Shown: piece after piece, positions 14,730 through 59,007 of the stretch
How the letters are laid out: every line of letters starts with the position of its first letter
How positions within the stretch are numbered: the first letter of the stretch is position 1
NCBI RefSeq assembly: GCF_028641065.1
Contig: NC_073401.1
Coordinates: 22,196,001 to 22,260,000, forward strand
DNA: 64,000 nt
Direction of reading: 5' to 3'
Origin: Leucoraja erinacea
Lineage: Eukaryota
Translations under genes and position numbers: made by a program
Notes under the pieces: generated by a model
Database searches by the model: none
What the model was told of the DNA's origin: nothing
Seen by the model: only the letters and a program-made list of their open reading frames with translations

Positions 14730-14940
14730 CGAGCCCCGCTGGCCCCGGATTAATGGCTCGCACCAGCTTTCCAGATGGTCTGCGGAGACTCGGCCCCGGC
14801 AGTAAGTCAAATCATGCCTCGTTTGGAGAAAAACACGTTGGCCATTGACCTTCTGACAGCAATGATTGGCTGCCGAAGCGTGGGAAACGCCAAGAAACTC
14901 GCACTCACGCTTTGCCTTATGGATTTGGAGCTATATATGT
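14730..14940 (+). promoter_or_regulatory. HES5-type Notch promoter module (locus A)
   Basis: CAGATG at 14772, ATTGG, CGTGGGAA 14879-14886 + 15 nt + CACTCACG, TATATAT at 14932. Confidence 0.8.
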
Positions 14941-14990
14941 AGAGAGCGTTGGAAAGAACTGCAGGAGACGAGAGCTTTGAGTATTTCAAC

Positions 14991-15461
14991 GTGACTTCAA
15001 TCAATATCTACATCAGCAATGATCAACCCAACATCGCAGTGGAGGCAAGAATAAATATGTTTACATTTGTAAATGAATGGAATGGGCAATACTTGAATAA
15101 TATTGCATAATATTCATCAACCGATGTTTTCGCCCCGCATAAACACTAAGAAAAATTATATATTTTTTCCCGAAAACAAACTTTTCTGACATTATTCTAT
15201 TTTGATCATCTCTCAATCAACGATTCTTCGGCAGAATGGTCGTGAGCAGGCCCGCTTTGCAGTGACAGTTCGCTTTATGACGACAGTGTGGTCCAAGAAG
15301 AAAATCCCCAACTATTAGAGCACTGTTCAAACCCAGCAGAAGTCTTGGCATCGCACCCCCACTTGTCACCCTGCCAGACCGAGTCAAACATTGACAGTCC
15401 GGAACAGCAAATCCGCGCAGAGCGGGAACATAATGGCATGTCGCAGAACTGGGGGGACTGA
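14991..15461 (+). pseudogene. Degenerate HES5-derived locus A
   Basis: GTG ACT TCA ATC AAT resembles the ATG ACT CCT GCC AAT start of copy 1. ttgcagtgacagttcgctttatgacgac resembles the Orange-domain DNA ttgcaggaggctcttcgatttttctcgac. It ends TGG GGG GAC TGA where TGG AGA CCC TGG (WRPW) is expected. No bHLH exon is recognisable. Confidence 0.5.
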
Positions 15462-18117
15462 CACTTGGACAAAACAAAATCACTGGAGATGTACTTTGTG
15501 GTGAAACGGTATTCCGTTGGGATGAATATTAGTAACATCGTTAAAAAGAAGTGTGTGTGTGTGCAGCAGTAAGTGCTATGTGTGTGTGCTATGTAATTGA
15601 ATAGTTATTTTCATACCGTTTGACTAATAATTTATAATATTTGTAGAATTTTTGAACTGCTATGTATGTAAATTCATAGCGAAAACAGCAGAAATCTCCA
15701 TATCGAGGAATGTATAGTTTGTTCTCATTAAGTTTTTATAACCATATCTGGCGATGTGATAGTAAACATGATTCATGTAACAGAAGCTTGTCATTAGAAG
15801 ACCTTGAACATTCTATTCTGATTATCAGTTTCGTGAATATGAAATGGGAAAAGTCTATGAACTTCCACCTATGGTTTCCCCACGGCAACCCGAGTTAATG
15901 ACAAAAACACCTGCAGACGTTTGAAATCAGAAATAAACGCAAACATGCTGGTAAAACTCAGCAGGTCAGGCTGCATGTGTGGAAGGAGAAAAATTAATGT
16001 TTCAATTCAGACGAAAGGTTTTTTTTATGGTCTTTCTTTTCGATTTTGTATCTGTAATCCATGTATAATTGCGTTTGTGTCTTCTGTCTGAATATGTGCC
16101 TATGCTGCTGCTTCAAACAAGATTTTTCATTGTGAGGTACAGGTATATCACCATACTTGTGCACATGACAATAAACTGGACGATGAAAGTTTAGACCTGA
16201 AAATTTCACGTCTCGGGCTCTTTATCCATAGATGCTGCTTGACCAGCTATTTTTTTTTCATAATTTGTATGGTATTCTTAAAATTAGTTTGGGATGTTAA
16301 TTTGCTACGGTGTGCGAAAAATAACCCTTATTTCGAATAAGCAGAGCCACAAACCTTCTTTTGAAAGAGGTGGCTACAATCATTTAAAGAGATATTCTCA
16401 TTCTTATTTATGCATCGATTGATCTGTTGTGATAATGATATTGTTATCTGAAATTATGGTCTATGTTAGATATCAAATGTTATGGGTGTTTACAGCCTAA
16501 TGCACTGCTGCCATGTCTCATGAAATACATTTAAACTTGCTGCCTAAATGTAACTTGATATAAATTGTTATAATCACAAATTAAAAATATTTTCAAGATG
16601 TCTTCAAATGGAATGGATTGTACAAATACTGGATTACCTTATTTCACACATTTTATTTTCCTCTCACCACTGAGTTGTGATGGAGCCTTTCTCTCCACCC
16701 GAATCCTTAGTGGGAATTGTCTTGCTCACACATCCTTGTCATGTTTATATTCAGGATTTGAAGACAATTAATTATATATTGTGGCTTGAGCTCCCAACTA
16801 AGTATTTCATTTTGAGGTCTCTTGAGGTTGATCTAAACTCAAAAATGCTGCTTTTGTTTTCTTAAGTTAAATATTTTATTTGCTTAGAACTAAGAGGCAG
16901 CATCGTGACTCGGGTACAAGAGCCACGGCCCCACAGCACCAGTGACTCGAGATCAATCTTGACAAATAGTGCTATCTGTGTGAATTTTTAATGTGTTTCT
17001 TGTGACTACATGAGTTTCCTTTGGATGCTCCAGTTTACTATAACATTCCACAATGTTCCAGGGTGAGTTCCAAAAAAGTGAGATTCATGGTTAATGTGGG
17101 TTCTGTGTGATAAACGGTCTGTTTCTGTACCGAATTATTCTGATTCTATCAATCTTGCAAAAACAGAAATTACAATCCGCAATCAATATAGTTCTTGTTC
17201 TGTGTATTATACCCAAACTCACTAGCATACAACATGGACTAGAACCTCTAATGTGATCAGACAGCACTCTTACACCATGCCGTTCCTCAAAGACCCATTG
17301 CATCAGATGCATCCTGCTTATGAATGTCACAGTAAATACCCTGGAAACTTGGAGTGGGTTAGACTGTAACATTTGGTGACTGACAACTCCAGTTGGAAGT
17401 TGCAGGCAGATTACATGGCTGCTTTTATCCAGTCAGTGCAGATAGAATCTGTTTTTTCCCTCATGAGAGTTAGCATGTAAAAACTCAATGTCCTGTTTTA
17501 GTGGCTTACTTGAATAAAATAGAATGGTAATGCACTATTCTCACAGTGGAAAGAAACATTCATCAAGGGTTGTAACATGCTATCATTGAACCTTGGACAG
17601 CAAGCAGAAGCACTGAGGTTCCAGGCATATGGAAAATACTAAACCAGGGTATCCTTCGTTATTAGCATCCAGGCAACATTCTAGTGGCTGTTAATCAGTA
17701 CAAGTGAGAAAATATTTGGCAAATGGCATTGAACAACAAAGCAGAAAATAAACCTGAAATCTCCCCACTCTCCTGAACATGCAGAAACACATTTCAGTCA
17801 GTTTGTTCATTGCGTAAAGACTTTCTGAGCATAGATTGTTTTCCTTCAGGAGCATGGCACGTGGAAGTGATGTGACCTGCTTGGTCAAAATATACTGGCA
17901 AAGCTCAGGAGATAGGTAGAAACTCAGCATGTAATTTAACTTAGTATTTACATACCAGAATGGCAAAGACCTACTAAGGTTCACTCCACACTTTTCTGGA
18001 CAAAATGAAAGATGGTCAGTTATTGATGATAGCGGTCTAATGAAATACAGGTCATAGTCAGGGAGTAAACCCTAAATATTTGCAGCAGGAGTTTAATAAC
18101 CAACTTATTTTCAATTA

Positions 18118-22419: not shown

Positions 22420-22625
22420 TTACACGAGCTCCGCTGGCGAAGGATTACTGACTCACGCCACGGCTCCAGATGGTCCCCTTGAGAGCCGGCTCCAATAAAA
22501 AAAAAGTCAAATACTCAGTGGACAATTTTTCATTCAGAAAGAGAAGCTTCTCATTGTCTCTCTGGCCCCGGCGATTGGATTCCGAGTGTGGGAATCGGCT
22601 GGAAACTCGCACCCACACTTCTGTT
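22420..22625 (+). promoter_or_regulatory. HES5-type promoter module without TATA (locus B)
   Basis: CAGATG at 22467, CATTGT, ATTGG, TGTGGGAA 22587-22594 + 15 nt + CACCCACA. Followed by a possible exon-1 remnant (ATG at about 22697, gtatgt at about 22750) and CR1 insertions. Confidence 0.75.
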
Positions 22626-22825
22626 TTGATCTGAAGGGTTGTTGTTTTTGTTTGTGCCAGAGGCTGTATCTCTCCCTTCTCCCAGATGACATAATAATGG
22701 AAGACATTTCAGGGAAGGGAATCTTAGCTAAAAGCAGGGCAAAAATGCGGTATGTTCAGCATTAATTTACACTATTATTGCCCATAATATATAACGGCCA
22801 AAAAATAGGCCGGAATACTGTACAC

Positions 22826-30204: not shown

Positions 30205-31148
30205 ATGACTCCTGCCAATGCTTCTGGTGTTATTACTGGGGAATACTCGGAAGAAAAGTTCATGGCCAAACAGAAAAGCAAAGTAAGCGCAAGAGACAGG
30301 CGGCAGAAAAATGGGTCAATAGTCTGGGCGAACCTTAACAAACTTTGTGAATTGTCACCTCGAACAAAACTAAAATCTTAATTCGTTTTACTTTTAGATC
30401 ATGAAGATAACAATCGAGAAAAGGCGCCGAGATCGGATAAACAGCAGCATCAACCAGCTAAAGACTCTACTGGGAAGAGAGTTTCAAACGGAAGAACCGA
30501 ACATGAAACTGGAGAAAGCCGACATTCTGAAAATGACAGTGAATTACCTGAAGTATCACAACCAACAGCTCAGAGGTAAACCGATTGATAAGCGGTGATT
30601 AGATTATAGGCCATTCTGCTCAATCTAAAACAGACGCAAAAAGCTGGAGTAACTCAGTGGGACAGGCAGCATCTCTGGAGAGAATTGGGTGACATTCCGG
30701 GTCGAGACTCTTCCTCAGAATCGACACGAAACGTCATCCATTCCTTCTCTCCAGAAATGCTTGAACCTGTCCCGCTGAGTTACTCCAGCTTTTTGTGCCT
30801 ATCGTTGGTTTAAACAAGCATCTGCAATTCACTTCCTACACATTTTGTCTGCTCAATCTAACTCTTATCTTCGTTTCTTTTGCAGCAAGCTGTACGACTG
30901 GTAACCCGGAGCGAGACTATAACGAAGGATACTCCCGGTGTTTGCAGGAGGCTCTTCGATTTTTCTCGACCCACGAAGGCAAAAGCGACATTCAGAAGAA
31001 GCTGGTGACACGCTTCCAAAGGATACAGCCACGGTGCCCGGCCAAAGGTCTACTTTACGGTGTATATCTTCCTTACACTGCTTCTTGTCAGACTGGCACT
31101 GAGCAAACACCCCAGTCCAACCCCGCGGCTCTCTGGAGACCCTGGTAA
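30205..31148 (+). CDS. HES5: HES5-like bHLH-Orange repressor (copy 1), 172 aa, 3 exons
   Basis: Exons 30205-30282, 30398-30575 and 30886-31148 (GT-AG; phases 0, 1). bHLH KITIEKRRRDRINSSINQLKTLL...EKADILKMTVNYLK, Orange DYNEGYSRCLQEALRF, C-terminal WRPW-stop. TATAAATA at 30120; ATTAAA at 31578. Confidence 0.93.
30627..30843. mobile_element. Short foldback element made of two inverted Penelope termini, in HES5 intron 2
   Basis: aaaaagctggagtaactcag...ctgagttactccagcttttt inverted arms. Similar or partial copies near 2075-2195, 4760-4990, 6260-6390, 15910-16250, 20035-20345, 20430-20630, 34830-34945, 45260-45355, 49460-49650, 50007-50130, 52770-52960, 62240-62310 and 63543-63660. Confidence 0.8.
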
Positions 31149-41056: not shown

Positions 41057-42161
41057 GTGGGGGCATGTGCGTGCGTGTGTGGGAGTGCGGGGGGGTGGGG
41101 GCTTCACTATGAAGTTAAAGTCCATGGAAGACCCATCCCACCGTCGCAATCAATATTTGCTTAAGGAATGAGGAATGTGGACAATCGATCCACATTCTTG
41201 CACATTCTGAGCTTGCAAACTTTCCAGCATTTTTACAAAACTCTAATGATCACCTTCGCCACGAAGACGAAGTTTATCAATCGGTTATCCCCCATGAACT
41301 TTGGAATTACATAATTTTATATTAATTTCCCGAAAGTCAAAAGAAAATAGCCAATATTTACTGAATCATTGTTTATTAAACCTCTTACAGAAGTCTACAA
41401 GATGGACATCAAGATGTCAGATTACTCCACATCCCTCTTGTACAGGAATCTACATGGAGAAAAACGCCCGACATTGTTTGCCATCATTTCAGCTATATAA
41501 CACACATTCATTAAGAATATACAGATTAATTTGAGAAACTCAAAAAACATTATAGAACAAGTCAGATATTATGACATTACATATCCGCTAATATAACATC
41601 CCTTGAACTAACTGCCCCGCCTCTTCAATATGAAGAAACTTCATTAATCGTGAGGAGACGTGTTAACCCTTCCATTACCACAGCAACCCCATTACAGCTC
41701 TGTTAAAACTATAAACTTTTAGACCTTTCAAAAAATAAAAGGCGATGAGGATTGAAACATCAAATAATCAGTTTCTAAAACTGATCATGCGGATATTTCT
41801 TCTGGAAAAGCCTATTTGCTGAGTTAAAAAAAATCAGTCTGCTGGAGTATACAATGGTAAACATAGGCACTCTGGACCGAATAGTTCCCTCTGCTGTAAT
41901 TCTACACGGTATGGTTAGATATTGCATACCACTTTCTACCGAAAATACAAACTGCACTTATCAAGGCAAATCTTCCATCTCTGACGCAGTTGAACTGGTA
42001 GGAATTGGAATGAAGAATTTCATCTACATTTTTGTTCTGGCGTTATCTTAACTACTCGACATATTTACTATAAACACACAATTATTATGAAGCATCTACA
42101 AATATTGTAGAACATGAATCCATATGATATGACCATACAGGTAAAGACGGGAAATATCCCT

Positions 42162-42807
42162 TTACAAACTATTCAGATCCTTCATTGTGAAGGTTTTACT
42201 ATCACTTCTTCCATTCAGGAATACAGTATCACACCGGAGCAGGTTATTCCGGTCGCTTCCCTCGTTGCGTGGGTTCAATTTTGCCAGGTGCCCGAGAATG
42301 CGGTACCTCTCGCTCATTCTCTTGCATATTTCTGGATGCAGAATCGTGGAGATTATCTGCTGAAAATATAAAAGGAGCAACATTCGTAAATACCCAGATG
42401 GGAACGCGAAGCTGCATGTTTAAGCGCCGCAGTGTTTTTTAATAGGATGCATCCACTGATGTTCATGTTACCTGGAATACACGATGTAATGGCTTGAATG
42501 CGACTGTTTCTGCCATAGGCTCCAGACAGACTGCGGATGGCTGTTGCGGGATCAATTCATTCTCCGCACTTGACTTCGACCCTTTATTTACACCAACTGA
42601 AAAAATAAGAAACACACCAGTAAGTCAGAGGCATAAGTCACACGCTCTAATTCATACAAATATATACGGCAAGTTCCAACTCAGCATATCTTACACATAA
42701 ATTCACCCACCTTCTGCATTCTTGAAGGAAGGATTCTGTTTCTTCCATTGCCTGAGACTCGCACCTACGCTCTGGATCCGACCCAAACCCTCCTCCAAAA
42801 ACAACAT
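42162..42807 (-). CDS. Candidate novel 3-exon gene (139 aa, no recognised domain) at a HES5-derived locus; alternatively a spliced pseudogene or lncRNA
   Basis: Starts at the first ATG after the TATA box. Exons 42711-42807, 42472-42596 and 42162-42359 have donors AAG|gtgggt and CAG|gtaaca and polypyrimidine-cag acceptors. The spliced frame has no internal stop. Confidence 0.5.
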
Positions 42808-42860
42808 CCAGCAACAGGCTGGCAGCCTCAGTCTGTTGCAGTTTGTCCAAACGACGCCCC

Positions 42861-43102
42861 TATTTATAGCTCGGATTGAAAGCGGAGAAGCGTGAGTCCG
42901 GGTTTCTCGGCGTTTCCCACACCTCGGCAGCCAATCGTTGCAGTCAAGGGGACAATGGCTAATGTGTTTCTTTTGAATGAGATATTATCCACACTGTTTG
43001 ACGGGTTTGTGCAGTCAATTCATGGAACCATCTGGAGAACTGGTATGAGCCAATAATCCCTGCTCGCAGTTTATCAGAAACTAAGACAAATTCTCCCACG
43101 TG
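42861..43102 (-). promoter_or_regulatory. Intact HES5-type Notch promoter module (locus D)
   Basis: CAGATG 43034-43029, CATTGT, ATTGG, TGTGGGAA 42921-42914 + 15 nt + GACTCACG, TATAAATA 42868-42861. Confidence 0.85.
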
Positions 43103-48362: not shown

Positions 48363-48809
48363 TTCCTCCTGGATTTGACCCTTTATGAATCAATGAGAGG
48401 CGAAACGCATTGGTCAGAGGGAAGAAATAATGCATGAGAGCTGAAGGTGCTTGACTACGAAATTACGTCTGTCTCGTTCATAGTCCACCAGAGTCAAATG
48501 GAAAATATTTAAATATCACAAACCAGCTGCCAACTTCACCTATTTCATCCCAACAAATCTGCATTAATTGTAGCTTTCATTCTGTTCCGCTGCAGGCCTT
48601 TGGTGTTTTTAGTGTCGTCCTCAAGGAATGTTATTAGCGGGTTCTCTAATAAGTCTAACTTTTGTTAGACTTATTAATCTTTCGCTACGGAATCTATTGG
48701 TAAAATGACCGATTGGAATGAGACAGATGTTCGCACCGTTGTCTTACATGGATGTGAGATGGGAAGAGTTCATTCGTTTCCCACCAACCCGGCAGGAGCC
48801 TGGCTGCTC

Positions 48810-49760
48810 TGGAATTACTGGCTCAGTCCGGCACTCCAGATGGTCCATTGAGACTCTGTGAGTCAAACGATGCGATGATTTACTCATTGAGAACACATTG
48901 ACTGTCGTGTCTCTGACAGGGGCAATCGGTTCCAGTGTGTGGGAAACGCTGAGAAACCCGGGCTCATGCTTCTACCACTTAAGTGTCCACTAAGAACTCT
49001 AAGTACATAAGACACTGGATAGTGCGGCAACATATCGAGCCCTGCTTGCAATTGTTTAAAGGCCAAGAGATGGCTGTAGGAACATCATTAGCACTGGAAA
49101 TCAATTCCTCCCGAGGTATTACAAATTGTGAGTGAAATGATATTTAAGATATAACGAATTGATTATTTCTGGGAAATATTAATAATTAATCTACCCGTCG
49201 GTGTTTTTGAGTAACACCAATATCTATATATGAGACTCTGTGAGTCAAACGATGCGATGATTTACTCATTGAGAACACATTGACTGTCGTGTCTCTGACA
49301 GGGGCAATCGGTTCCAGTGTGTGGGAAACGCTGAGAAACCCGGGCTCATGCTTCTACCACTTAAGTGTCCACTAAGAACTCTAAGTACATAAGACATTGG
49401 ATAGAGCGGTAACATATCGTGCCCTGCTTGCAATTGTTTAAAGGCCAAGAAACAAATAAAGACACAACGTGCTGGAATAACTCTGCATGTCAGGTGGCAT
49501 ATGTGGAGAACGTGGATATGCAACGTTTTGGGTTAGGACCCTTCTTCTGACCCAACCCGAAACGTTGGCTATCCATGCTCTCCAGAGATGGTGCCTGACC
49601 CGCTGAGTTATTATTTTTTTTGTATACCAATATCGGCAGCTCCATGTTTCTGCAAAATTAGAAGCAATGCAAGCGCCGAAAACTCCTGTCCGAAACAAAA
49701 CCCGAGAATTTTACTGAGCTCAACATGCAGTCAATGGTTTTTCAGCTCATGGCTGGGAGA
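48810..49760 (+). pseudogene. Degenerate HES5-derived locus E with duplicated promoter
   Basis: CAGATG at 48837; TGTGGGAA at 48938 + 15 nt + GGCTCATG. Exon-1-like MAVGTSLALEINSSRGITN at 49070-49127 then gtgagt (wrong phase). Exon-2-like vestige cgagaatttt-actgagctcaacatgcag (REF..TELNMQ versus REFQTEEPNMK) near 49703-49730. Confidence 0.55.
48849..49450 (+). repeat. 220-bp direct duplication (48849-49068 / 49231-49450)
   Basis: Direct comparison shows 4 mismatches, all in the last ~55 bp. Confidence 0.95.
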
Positions 49761-51207
49761 TACCGGCGAAGCTGTAACAATGGAGGGCATTTGCAAGTCC
49801 TGTAGAGTCGCTAGTTGGAATGTTTGAAGCACCAGGATTTCAGTCTGATGTCCAATATTATTTCAGAATTGAATCAGTGGCATTACATTTTCACATTGGG
49901 TTACATGTGTACCTTCATAAAAAAATATGGCTGTCTTCCACTATTTTTAGTTCCATAACGCTGCATTCACGTTATATCTAGTCAGAAGTTGGAATGTTGA
50001 GTCGCCGGAGAGAAGGAATGGGTGACGTTTCGGGTCTGAAGAAGGGCCTGGACCCGAAACGTCAACCATTCATTCTCGAGAGAGAGGCAGCTTGCACCGC
50101 TAAGATGCTCCAGCTTTTTGTGTCTATCTCCAATCAATACATTGCTGATCGCACACGATAATCCCCTATTTTCAAACGTAAAATATGAGTGGTGTTATCC
50201 AATTAAATTCTGAACAAAAATACATGTTCTGTGGTGATGTTGGTAGAGTGGGCGGTGGCAAGAAGAAGAGAGAGGTGATTTGGTTTCGGAGGAGTCTTTC
50301 AACGTGGTTTCTTAGTGTAGTTAACATCTCGTTGGCTATATGCAACAGGATATATCCCTGGAACCTGGTTTATGCCGCCTCGGTAACGCCCAGCAGATGG
50401 AAATCCGTTATTTACAGACAGAGCCCCCTCTGGTGCCGCCGTCCGTTGCCCCACCTGAACAAACTCCAACATCGCATATACTAAGTGGGTAAAAAAGACG
50501 AAGCATGGTAAATGTTATCAAGCAAAAATTAAAATATTGTAAATGCCGGAAATATGGAATTAAAAAAAAAGCTCTAATACTTAAAAGGCGTGGCAGGGTG
50601 CGCAGAGTGAGCAGATCCATTGTATAATTGTCATATGTACCGACATCGGAACAATGAAATTGTTACATGCAGCAGCATAACAAGCATGTGAATACAATAT
50701 TCATAGATACCATATAATAAGAAACGATTCAATACATTAATAACCCGAATACAAGTGCAAATGAATCGATAAATGTAACATTCTGTCAACTGCATGTTTT
50801 ATTGTTGTAGTTCTGCTATTTTACAACACTAAGCATTCACGAGAACATTTCTACTAAATTTCATCGCTTGACAGACAGTGTATTGGAAGAACGAGCAGCG
50901 TACACTGAGTTATTAATGAGCGAAACATTTCAGGTGGTCATAGCAATAATTCCGAGGAGATTTTTTGACACAGATCAACGCGGAAACGTCTATAACTATT
51001 GACGATAGAGCAACTATTCTTTGTAGACACTGGGGTATGCAGATCGATTGTCGAAGCAAGTCAGCAGTCACGTCAAGAGTGTTTTATTGTCATATCTCCC
51101 AGGTAGAACAATGACATACTTGCTTGCTGCAGCACAACAGAATATGTAAACATAGTACACTGTAAATAATATGATAAACGAGAGAAAAAAAGTTCAGTGT
51201 GTATATA

Positions 51208-54630: not shown

Positions 54631-57600
54631 TGAGTTATAATGCGTCGTTACATTTAAACAATCATACACTCTGTCGGTTTTTCTCCAAAAATAATTAATG
54701 ATTTTACTTGAAAGAGACAACTCGCTTACACGTTCGCATAGGAGAATATCTTCCTTGCCCAATTGATATTTTTACGGCAGAGATAGATAGATTCTTGATT
54801 AGCACGAGTGTCAGGGGTTATGGGGAGAAGGCAGGAGAATGGGGTTAGGAGGAAGAGATAGACCAGCCTAGATGGGCCGAATTGCCTAATTCTTCACCTA
54901 TCCCCTATGACCTCACCTATTTATTATTTTAATGACTGTACCCATTGATATGTTATTAGATGAATCAAATCACGTTTATTATGAAATATATTGACAATAT
55001 TACTTGTTCAAATATTCTCAATTACTGCATCTTAAATGTAGAACCATCAACTACAAGTAAATCAGACCAGTTTCTCAGCGACCCCAACTCATTCTAGTTA
55101 AAAGCATTCCAGCAATACGGTTTATTGTCCAAGTCAGGTCTCGGCCTCCGACCTGCATGTTTCAACGGCACGTGGACATTTCCAGTGCTTATCATTCATT
55201 TCTAAGGCATTAATTTTAACGAGACAACGATTGTCCTAATTCATAGACCCCCCCCCCCCCTCTTTCTCCCCTCCCGGTTCCCCAATGATGGACAAACTGA
55301 TGTCAACATTTGTGGCAGATATCTGGCGAATGCATTTTTGTATCAATTCTCGGATTTATAACTCTGAATATTAACGGAGAAAGAGCAGCGGGGATATACT
55401 TGGGAATATTTCTATAGTTTGTGACTTGAGCGATTATGTCCCAAGTATCGGTTATTAGCCCAAAGCACTTTTTTTGGGATTCGTTTTCTTTGCTCTGCAA
55501 ACCATTCTGAGGAGCACAGTGTTACTGGGCGGAGAGTTGCGTGGATTTAAATGTTGCCAACATAGGTGCATTGTTGTTGCACTGGACTCGATCTGAACTA
55601 TACCCTCGCCCATGATGCGAAGTGTGAGAAGAATCGGATCTAAGAGCCACGAAGCGCTGGAACTTGCAGCAAAGGGGTTAAAATGAAACCTGCCAGGACA
55701 GATGCGACAACGGGTTAATGAAGCATTTAGATATCATTAGGAAGGAACAATTTTTTTTCTCGAAAGTACTGCGCATCAGTTCCCACGATCTGCTTGTTAG
55801 ATCCTTTCAATTTCATTCCGACTGAATAGAGGCATTGAGGCGGCGCAGCTGTTAGAACCGACCTTCCCTAATCTTCGACGCGTGGGAAAGCAGACTCTAC
55901 CAAACCCCATCACACGCCAGAAGTGGGCTATAAATAGGGACACACTCGCAGATTACATCTGCAACAGGGCACAAGGCCAGATGCGTGCATCGTCAGTATA
56001 TCACGTAAAAAGTCAACAGTGGTCAATGACTTTCACTTATTCCCCGCTGCTGTTCGGTGCTCCCATTGCGTGGATCTCAGCAACGTTTCAAACATAAGGG
56101 ATAGACTTACGTCAGGGTCGACACTTCGAAAACCGTCCATCGATTATTGATTGATTATTATTAATAACATATATCGATAGCCAAACTTTTGAGGACGTGA
56201 TTGGACATTTAATTGTGCCCACGAGACAAATACTGGAATTAAACTTCTGGAAAACATGCTAAAACACGCAGATTCTGGAAACCTGAAATTAAATTTGAAA
56301 AGGCTTCTCCTTGATTAACTCAAAAACTCCATGTTGTTGATAATAATTTCTCTGACGATTGTTTCTAAGACCTCACCTATCACCAATGAAAATCTGACCA
56401 GCCTGTTGCCACTAGGCATGTCCATATATTCGTTTTGCCCATTCTAATCTTTAAGCACCTCCCACAAAAATATGGCAAATTGGCAAATTATTTCAAGCCC
56501 TTATTATATCTGTATACATCCCCTTTATTAACGAACCCCTGATGCAAGGATCGGCCACAAACACACTCTGAGCATTGCCATCTTTTGAGTCCATTCTACC
56601 TGTCACTTGTTACCCCATCCATCAGCTCTTCTGTTGGGAACTGATATTTTAACAGCTTCCGATTCCTTAGTAAACAACAAAACAAAGTGTTTATATGTTT
56701 TCTAGCTTTGCCTCTATGCGTGAGGTGTCTTTTATAATTTCTCACTATTTACATACTGGCAAAGGACTCTTATGCTCTCCTATCTTTAATCACATACGCT
56801 CTCTTTGGCAGATGTTTTCTGCTTCACCTCCCTGCTTCCCTCTGATATTCTATTTCTGTAGTAGGATATTTTTAAACTATGGAAAAATACAATCCATATT
56901 GTGTTTCGAATAAATACATCATAGATTTATCTCCCTTTAGTCCCACATAGGTGTCATTTTTAATAGTCCCCAGAGCGCACCTAATTTTGCTTAGAGAAAT
57001 CACTTCACATGTGTCATATGCCTTTTTCATTTTCATCATATCCTTCAAGGATCTCTGGCTTTGGTTGAAGCCTCACTTGTTGGAATCGACTTAACCTGCA
57101 CTGTAAAATCGTTCTCATTAAAGCTCACTTAATGGCCATTACAATTTTTCCCTGTTAATCATTGGATGCAGGGCCTTCACCTGATATGCCGACCAGCCAT
57201 TTGCCTCCACAGATTCTGCTTAACCAGCTGACTTCTTCCAGCTGTTTGCTTTTACTTCAGATTGCAGCATTTCCCACCACATTGAAATTAGCCCCACTTT
57301 AAATTTAAATTGTACCAAAGTACAAATTGTACTTAATAGCACAGTTTCTTCATTGTTCTACTGTTTCTCCATTAGCAACCCGTACCCGGTCATAATGTCC
57401 AAATGTGTTGTGATGTTCACAGATAGATCATACATAGAAAAGGAATTGTGGATACAATTGTTTATTTGAAAATAAAATAAAAATCATAATTTTAACATGG
57501 AATTAAATTGTGGTACACAATATTTTATTTACAAACAAAAATAATAATATGACAATATACTTAGATCAGCATTGTTACAATGCAGTTAAATATAGAACTG

Positions 57601-58216: not shown

Positions 58217-59007
58217 CTACCAGGGTCTCCAGAGCGCCGTGACTTTGGATTTAACTTCCTTTTTGGTGCCCGGTGGACACACAGAAGGATGCACGAGAGA
58301 AGAAATTGGCCTCGAGCCATTGGGCAGATCATAAGCTTTGTGCAAATACTTGACCAGTTTATTCTGAACGTCGATCTTGCTTTCCGGGGCGAAGGTAAAA
58401 TGCTGTATCTCCTGCAGACAGCGTGTGTATCCTTCCTTAAAATTGTGAGTTAGACTCTTGTTGTAGGTCACTGTAGATGAGAAGAAATTGAACAATTTAG
58501 AGGGGCGTTTGCGAGAGAGAGAAAAAAAAACTGACAATGTGGCGCTATTTATCAAACAATAGGGTTTCTATTTAAAAACACAAATTTAATTTAAAGACGG
58601 AAAGTTTATCCATTTTATAGTATTCTTTCAACTATTAATTACAAAAAATACAAGTACCTGTAAACATGCGTTGACTATGAAGTTTCAGGTAATTCACAGT
58701 CATCTCCAAAATGTCAGCTTTTTCCATTTTCATGTTTGGCTCTCCGTTCTGAAACTCTTCCCCCAGCAAAGACTTGAGTTGCCCGATGCTGCTGTTTATA
58801 CGATCTCGGCGTTTCTTCTCCACAATTGGCTTCATTAACTGGGGAAGTACAGGAAACATGAGTTTACACAGAACTCGAAAATTGGCTAAGAATGTTTGCA
58901 CATTTATTTCATTTAAAGGCAAAGCGACTTACTTTGTATTTTTCCTTTCGTGTGGCTTTTTCCTCTGGATGTTGTTTTGGGATAGCGCCAGGCATTCTAG
59001 GAGCCAT
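58217..59007 (-). CDS. HES5: HES5-like bHLH-Orange repressor (copy 2), 169 aa, 3 exons
   Basis: Exons 58933-59007, 58658-58838 and 58217-58470 (GT-AG; phases 0, 1). bHLH MKPIVEKKRRDRINSSIGQLKSLL...EKADILEMTVNYLK, Orange NFKEGYTRCLQE, WRPW-stop. TATAAATA at 59091-59098; AATAAA at 57524-57529. Confidence 0.95.

Follow-up and report, generated by a model that had tools for sequence, protein, structure and literature searches.

The candidate locus lies on the minus strand of the window (the whole stretch of 64 000 nucleotides of Leucoraja erinacea DNA that was analysed) and is a HES5 duplicate that has lost the HES5 reading frame and is still transcribed and spliced. It is probably a transcribed unprocessed pseudogene that has kept its promoter, and would then be ordinary in kind: a real, expressed pseudogene. 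Introns and homology are present at the locus of the parent gene, the parental frame is disabled (start codon lost, stops, deletion), and transcription is documented by 104 stranded RNA reads and by both splice junctions. An earlier note on this DNA had proposed that a HES5 duplicate lost its protein and kept its promoter and splicing; RNA junctions, promoter match and the ordered relics in exon 3 all agree with this proposal. Its further suggestion, a new gene for a 139-residue protein, has been weakened: the tail of that protein is old 3' UTR, a close relative (organism C) carries about 124 extra bases, and no annotated homologue of the exon-3 peptide was found. The features discussed are collated in Table 1.

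Table 1. Features of the candidate locus and of the HES5 cluster (positions in the window).
Feature	Position	Strand	Remarks
Candidate, spliced 139-codon open frame	42162..42807	-	first ATG, weak context
Candidate exon 1	42711..42837	-	5' end taken from RNA contig
Candidate intron 1, 114 nt, GT-AG	42597..42710	-	18 X23 junction reads and one X1 contig
Candidate exon 2, 125 nt	42472..42596	-	occupies the place of the bHLH exon (intact copies: 178-181 nt)
Candidate intron 2, 112 nt, GT-AG	42360..42471	-	9 X23 junction reads
Candidate exon 3 and 3' UTR	41437..42359	-	X1 contigs end at 41437; few X23 reads to ~41200
16-codon frame, second ATG (42748)	42584..42748	-	strong context; stop 112 nt before last junction
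HES5-type promoter module	42848..43061	-	core identity to other copies
Extra-base site in organism C	42306..42306	-	record positions 1291 and 1415 both map there; after codon 92
3' UTR-homologous block	42067..42258	-	to copy 2 3' UTR 58174-58001; 63% identity; holds residues 108-139
Orange-domain start relic	42319..42354	-	frame of second ATG; 139-codon frame reads the relic at +1
Putative WRPW-stop relic	42272..42310	-	WRPW codons plus stop at 42295-42281; residues 96-101 read them out of frame
Intact HES5 copy 1, 172 aa	30205..31148	+	
Intact HES5 copy 2, 169 aa	58217..59007	-	
Dead sister copy	14739..15729	+	promoter core 81-84% identical to that of candidate; same 3' UTR block
Dead copy	22434..22760	+	promoter module without TATA; short exon-1 remnant, then repeat
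Dead copy	48803..49976	+	220-nt internal promoter duplication; weaker 3' UTR block (5/500 shuffles)

Transcription, splicing and open frames

Four of the 24 sequencing runs listed were aligned; the run search itself named none with the locus that is recorded as RNA, and the evidence for RNA comes from these alignments. X23 is an RNA run with raw reads, about 6% of which was read, and X1 consists of contigs whose RNA status was guessed. The 104 X23 reads at the candidate locus were found among 8.7 million records, and in all of them the first mate lies on the plus strand, which in most stranded libraries denotes minus-strand RNA. The RNA is thus well spliced and not rare, a point against the pseudogene reading. 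The two junctions predicted earlier (42711/42596 and 42472/42359) are both supported by RNA: 18 reads are spliced across intron 1 and 9 across intron 2. The first junction of X1 is identical to that of X23, the 5' end in X1 being 42837, and RNA coverage ends upstream of the TATA box. The acceptor of intron 2 is followed 3 nt later by a second one in tandem (NAGNAG), and the ends of the X1 contigs are compatible with both acceptors. An AATAAA poly(A) signal is present in the 3' end region at 41372-41377. At window position 42707, within intron 1, three X23 reads diverge from the reference with other letters, which suggests an allele or another splice form.

Splicing of the minus-strand coding exons 42807-42711 (97 nt, counted from the first ATG), 42596-42472 (125 nt) and 42359-42162 (198 nt), followed by translation, gave 139 residues. 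This reproduces the three exons, the two GT-AG introns (114 and 112 nt) and the 139-residue frame described earlier. Two reservations attached to that description were also well founded: another AATAAA lies inside exon 2, at 42588, and the second ATG opens the frame of 16 codons only. The first ATG, in weak context, is 30 nt from the 5' end. The long frame ends in the last exon and would therefore escape nonsense-mediated decay.

The distance from TATA box to exon-1 donor is 157 nt in the candidate versus 162 and 165 nt in the intact copies. ATGs occur in the candidate 97, 38 and 9 nt before this donor, and there is none at the ancestral start site, 75-78 nt before it; on these distances the second ATG was ruled out as the ancestral start. 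The 18-mer 42794-42811, which spans the first ATG, is the reverse complement of copy 2 exon 1 (58965-58982) at 17 of 18 positions (2/2000), too similar for the age of the duplication. An exon-1 inversion was considered as the origin of the first ATG, but the match to reversed copy 2 exon 1 does not extend further (1481/2000).

Promoter module

The complete HES5-type promoter that had been reported from the sequence was found in all its parts. These comprise an E-box (43034-43029), an inverted CCAAT (42935-42931), a CSL site (42920-42914), a weak second half-site (42891-42897; gap of 16 nt from the CSL site) and a TATA box (42868-42863). The candidate promoter thus contains a CSL site and a weak partner 16 nt away; for mammalian Hes5, excerpts of PMC7685452 describe a CSL site with a cryptic partner at a 16-nt gap.

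The core of the candidate promoter is 66-81% identical to those of the five other copies (the figure for the sister copy being 81-84%), and the intact copies are 62% identical to each other. By contrast, exon 2 of the candidate shows 58% identity (random pairs: 53 +/- 6%). Since the promoter core is retained at this level while the former coding exons are at background, we read the promoter as kept by selection, although gene conversion could yield the same identities. A promoter profile built from six of these copies found seven places in the 264 kb searched, none of them outside the window. Besides the two intact genes and the candidate, they comprise the dead copies at about 14.8, 22.5 and 48.9 kb and a partial second module in the 48.9-kb copy. 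At window positions 55881-55940 (plus strand) a CSL site is followed by a TATA box, with no match to the HES5 promoter profile and with several other CSL sites nearby.

HES5 cluster and neighbourhood

Six HES5 copies are present in the window, two intact and four dead, the candidate included. An annotated skate HES-5-like protein shares 96% identity with the exon-3 peptide of copy 2, and a search of the 2.19-Gb genome with the HES5 bHLH exon (15 candidates scored) matched the two intact copies only. The three other dead copies all retain the promoter module, and two of them also the 3' UTR block. Within one HES5 cluster, four dead copies retain the Notch promoter module while their exons decay. 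If the candidate is a pseudogene, this is a clear case of promoters that outlive their genes, and it suggests that the dead copies may act as regulatory elements for the intact ones.

The direct duplication of the promoter module in the 49-kb copy (98% identity) comprises 48849-49068 and 49231-49450 (plus strand), and its first copy is followed by a short exon-1-like frame. Intron 2 of copy 1 (310 nt, compared with 187 nt in copy 2) is lengthened by a repeat fragment at 30632-30845 that is frequent in the window.

Exons encoding a cyclophilin domain lie 70-100 kb to the left of the window (G000:C25:22126045 and 22099527), and an immunoglobulin V-set segment lies 96 kb to the right (L024:6393-6806, minus strand). 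According to excerpts of PMC8320183, the hes5 locus adjoins ppil2 in elephant shark and coelacanth. We infer that the flanking cyclophilin-domain gene is ppil2; together with the V-set segment it would fit such a hes5-ppil2 locus. An Rtf2-family search did not confirm the identity as ppil2. The table in the Discussion of the same article gives elephant shark hes5 on scaffold 221 as 8 exons and 475 aa. At about three times the size of a normal copy, this entry may represent several tandem copies fused into one gene model.

Relics of HES5 in the exons

Whole-exon DNA comparisons of the candidate with the intact copies were tested against shuffles, the UTRs being excluded. Similarity was not clearly above that of the shuffles (smallest p 0.023 among 18 tests); the intact copies, as positive control, matched each other far above shuffles. 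Exon 2, for which a trace of the bHLH stretch DRINSSI had been claimed, scored at chance with the bHLH profile (182/300 shuffles reached its score), in line with its identity of 58% against 53 +/- 6% for random pairs. Its relic frame contains two stops, and none of the exon peptides has a Pfam bHLH match.

Exon 3 holds relics in the HES5 order. Its first 54 nt match the start of the Orange domain (2/300 shuffles, best of three frames), as the earlier note had proposed; only the first 12 codons of the domain remain, outside the long frame. For the next 50 nt, the best local DNA match is, in each of the two intact copies, the WRPW-stop region (46 and 92 of 2000 shuffles), so that the pairing of APGKIE with APESKID of copy 2, put forward earlier as part of the Orange start, was misplaced. 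The score of this putative WRPW-stop relic is modest and its order is as expected; at protein level it is not above chance (157/300), the assignment being drawn from the DNA alignment, and the codons are changed. The 139-codon frame has neither bHLH nor WRPW, as had been stated.

Block 42258-42067 was aligned with the 3' UTR of copy 2 with a score of 141 (shuffle mean 69), reached by none of 500 shuffles. Residues 108-139 of the long frame are therefore former HES5 3' UTR. The block also matches the 14.9-kb copy (0/500 shuffles, 73% over 41 nt) and, more weakly, the 49-kb copy (5/500); intact copy 1 gave no match (261/500).

Retention of this block bears on an unlikely alternative, in which the product is a working RNA: a Notch-induced non-coding RNA with HES5 3' UTR elements that would compete for factors destabilising HES5 mRNA. 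The block (63% to copy 2, and the 41-nt match to the 14.9-kb copy) has been preserved better than the former coding exons; the RNA is efficiently spliced and has a poly(A) signal. The UTR was scanned for Pumilio elements, ATTTA repeats and the miR-9 seed. All three are absent from the candidate UTR, and the UTR of copy 2 contains two Pumilio elements and six ATTTA. Moreover, 14 of the 25 substitutions found in organism B lie in the 3' part of the candidate, as do all 13 gap letters in the first piece of organism C, which also speaks against this alternative.

Probable deletion at 42306 and close relatives

In the candidate, 23 nt separate the Orange relic from the WRPW relic, compared with 177 and 183 nt in the intact copies, a shortfall of 154-160 nt. 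Organism C is represented by a DNA run about 2% diverged from the reference (51 other letters in 2299); at 42306, within the 23-nt gap, it carries some 124 additional bases (one contig of one run; length only). The sum of 23 and 124 nt is 147 nt or 49 codons, by which the ancestral register is regained, an outcome expected by chance in 1 of 3 cases. The piece of about 124 bases is absent from organism B and from both RNA runs. On the simplest reading of these sequences, a deletion occurred in the lineage of the candidate after its split from organism C.

About 124 bases are not a multiple of three and lie after codon 92, where they would change the register; the 139-codon frame in its present form, with its last 47 codons, is therefore not common to organism C. 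These 47 codons likely arose through a recent deletion. The long frame stands in a shifted parental register, which is +1 for residues 75-92 and is shifted again after 42306.

The 25 substitutions of organism B were all listed. Three fall in the 420 coding nucleotides, none of them in codons 1-110, which amounts to no deficit (P = 0.30); many are common to the RNA runs and may therefore be shared polymorphism. Of the coding variants among those listed, two are synonymous and two change a residue. For organism C the list covers 24 of its 51 other letters and 16 of its 17 gap letters, and no gap among these falls in the coding exons; one of the 17 gap letters of organism C and three of six in organism B are without placement. 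A codon-usage test gave 336/2000 for the candidate, and the intact HES5 copies, used as positive controls, failed it as well (447 and 137 of 2000).

Length of the open frame and protein searches

Shuffling of the transcript produced a frame of at least 139 codons from an ATG in 4 of 3000 trials, and shuffling of the 5' 500 nt only in 5 of 3000. In simulated neutral decay of intact transcripts, 10-34 of 2000 reached 139 codons over six settings (0.5-1.7% per copy), which adds up to a few percent when all four dead copies are counted, before allowing for the choice of striking cases. The chance of about 0.1% estimated earlier therefore holds for shuffled sequence and is too low for a decayed HES5 copy. 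Frame length counts for a protein reading as a real point, not a strong one. In intact copy 2, the +1 frame is itself stop-free for 115 codons (58470-58100, minus strand; exon 3 into 3' UTR), so the raw material for a shifted frame existed.

Annotated proteins contained no homologue of the exon-3 peptide (6 and 1 candidates scored). With phmmer, this peptide gave two matches among 1.84 billion representatives (E 1e-5 and 5e-4); both were dropped as homologues, being tandem-repeat proteins scored over 6-7 stretches, and were taken as chance. As a control, six annotated shark and ray HES5 proteins were found in the same collection, plus three skate members of one cluster. Because skate HES5 proteins are present there, an annotated copy of the candidate frame would likely have surfaced; the queries consisted of exon 3 alone, and an orthologue with only residues 1-92 in common could escape them. 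Pfam gave for the three exon peptides only TYW2_N_2 (E 0.24, below the cut-off). The ESM Atlas returned no usable match for the exon 2 and exon 3 peptides, which is evidence neither way.

That the locus is a young protein gene, in which HES5 exons are read in +1, residues 1-92 are the working part and the tail is free to change, is decidedly unlikely. The frame is open from the first ATG to the last exon, which is rare under both null models; the stop-free +1 frame of copy 2 fits such an origin, and no indel was listed within codons 1-92 in any of the four runs. Against this stand the 47-codon tail, which organism C does not share, the weak context of the first ATG next to a strong second one, the lack of a Pfam family and of a homologue of the exon-3 peptide, the four gap letters without placement and the change of a residue by two of the four listed coding variants. 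A gene in birth, i.e. a Notch-driven HES5 duplicate in the +1 frame with its first 92 residues conserved in skates and its tail swapped for old 3' UTR, is improbable to the same extent.

Very improbable is the capture of a HES5 promoter by an unrelated gene, or a diverged Orange-only protein: exons 1 and 2 align to HES5 no better than chance and residues 92-109 slightly resemble the end of the Orange domain (2.5 bits with a local Orange profile on the long frame), but Pfam Hairy_orange misses the exon peptides, the Orange-like stretch appears to be the WRPW-stop relic in another frame, the matching TATA-to-donor distance points to HES5, and the collinear relics of exon 3 (Orange start, WRPW-stop, 3' UTR) largely refute both.

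Proposed origin

As a transcribed pseudogene, the candidate would have arisen by a tandem duplication in which the whole HES5 gene was copied. Its original start codon and bHLH would have been lost next, exon 3 retaining the Orange start, the WRPW-stop and the 3' UTR as relics. Later, once this lineage and that of organism C had separated, the loss of about 124 nt would have placed the old WRPW-stop and 3' UTR in one frame with the +1 reading of the HES5 exons; the resulting 139-codon frame is likely a recent by-product. Selection has likely preserved the promoter as an element by which the cluster is controlled in response to Notch. Transcription would then reflect the activity of the retained promoter and no need for what the RNA encodes. 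Ribosomes may mostly begin at the strong second ATG and make the 16-residue peptide, with some leaking into the long frame; the 16-codon frame would invite nonsense-mediated decay, which translation from the first ATG or from codon 60 would avoid.

Comparison with known systems

No paper on this skate locus was found in the literature listings searched, which came largely from open-access journals. The HES5/hes5 clusters of jawed vertebrates, as described in excerpts of Kuretani et al. 2021 (PMC8320183), are alike in their tandem three-exon copies and in a promoter with a CSL site. The candidate differs from them in having no protein with bHLH, Orange domain or WRPW, and four of the six skate copies are dead; skates and transcribed dead copies do not figure in those excerpts.

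In Hezroni et al. 2017 (PMC5577775), promoter, splice sites and short regulatory blocks are described as outlasting the coding sequence in lncRNAs from formerly coding genes, and selection on enhancer sequences is proposed as the main cause of their retention. The candidate resembles these lncRNAs and transcribed unprocessed pseudogenes in its control elements, which were inherited from a coding ancestor. The cases in that study concern mammals and ancestral genes that were lost, whereas the parent of the skate locus survives next door, a route that the Discussion calls hard to quantify.

Frameshift-derived genes after duplication are alike in a long frame that reads the exons of the parent at +1. 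The candidate differs in that its tail comes from the 3' UTR and does not recur in a close relative; it is known from sequence and RNA. Comparison with close relatives can date the deletion that probably created the frame, and the locus offers a test of the origin of open frames from duplicates. If codons 1-92 were conserved and translated, it would be a rare new vertebrate protein, in which a developmental regulator is re-read under inherited signalling control.

Members of the Bearded family are non-bHLH Notch targets, conserved proteins that are not derived from bHLH genes; for the candidate, by comparison, no protein conservation was seen. The Bearded family of the Drosophila E(spl) complex would be alike, if the candidate protein is real, in a non-HES product under a HES-type promoter within a HES cluster, and the reading as a gene in birth, if true, would provide a vertebrate non-bHLH product inside such a cluster.
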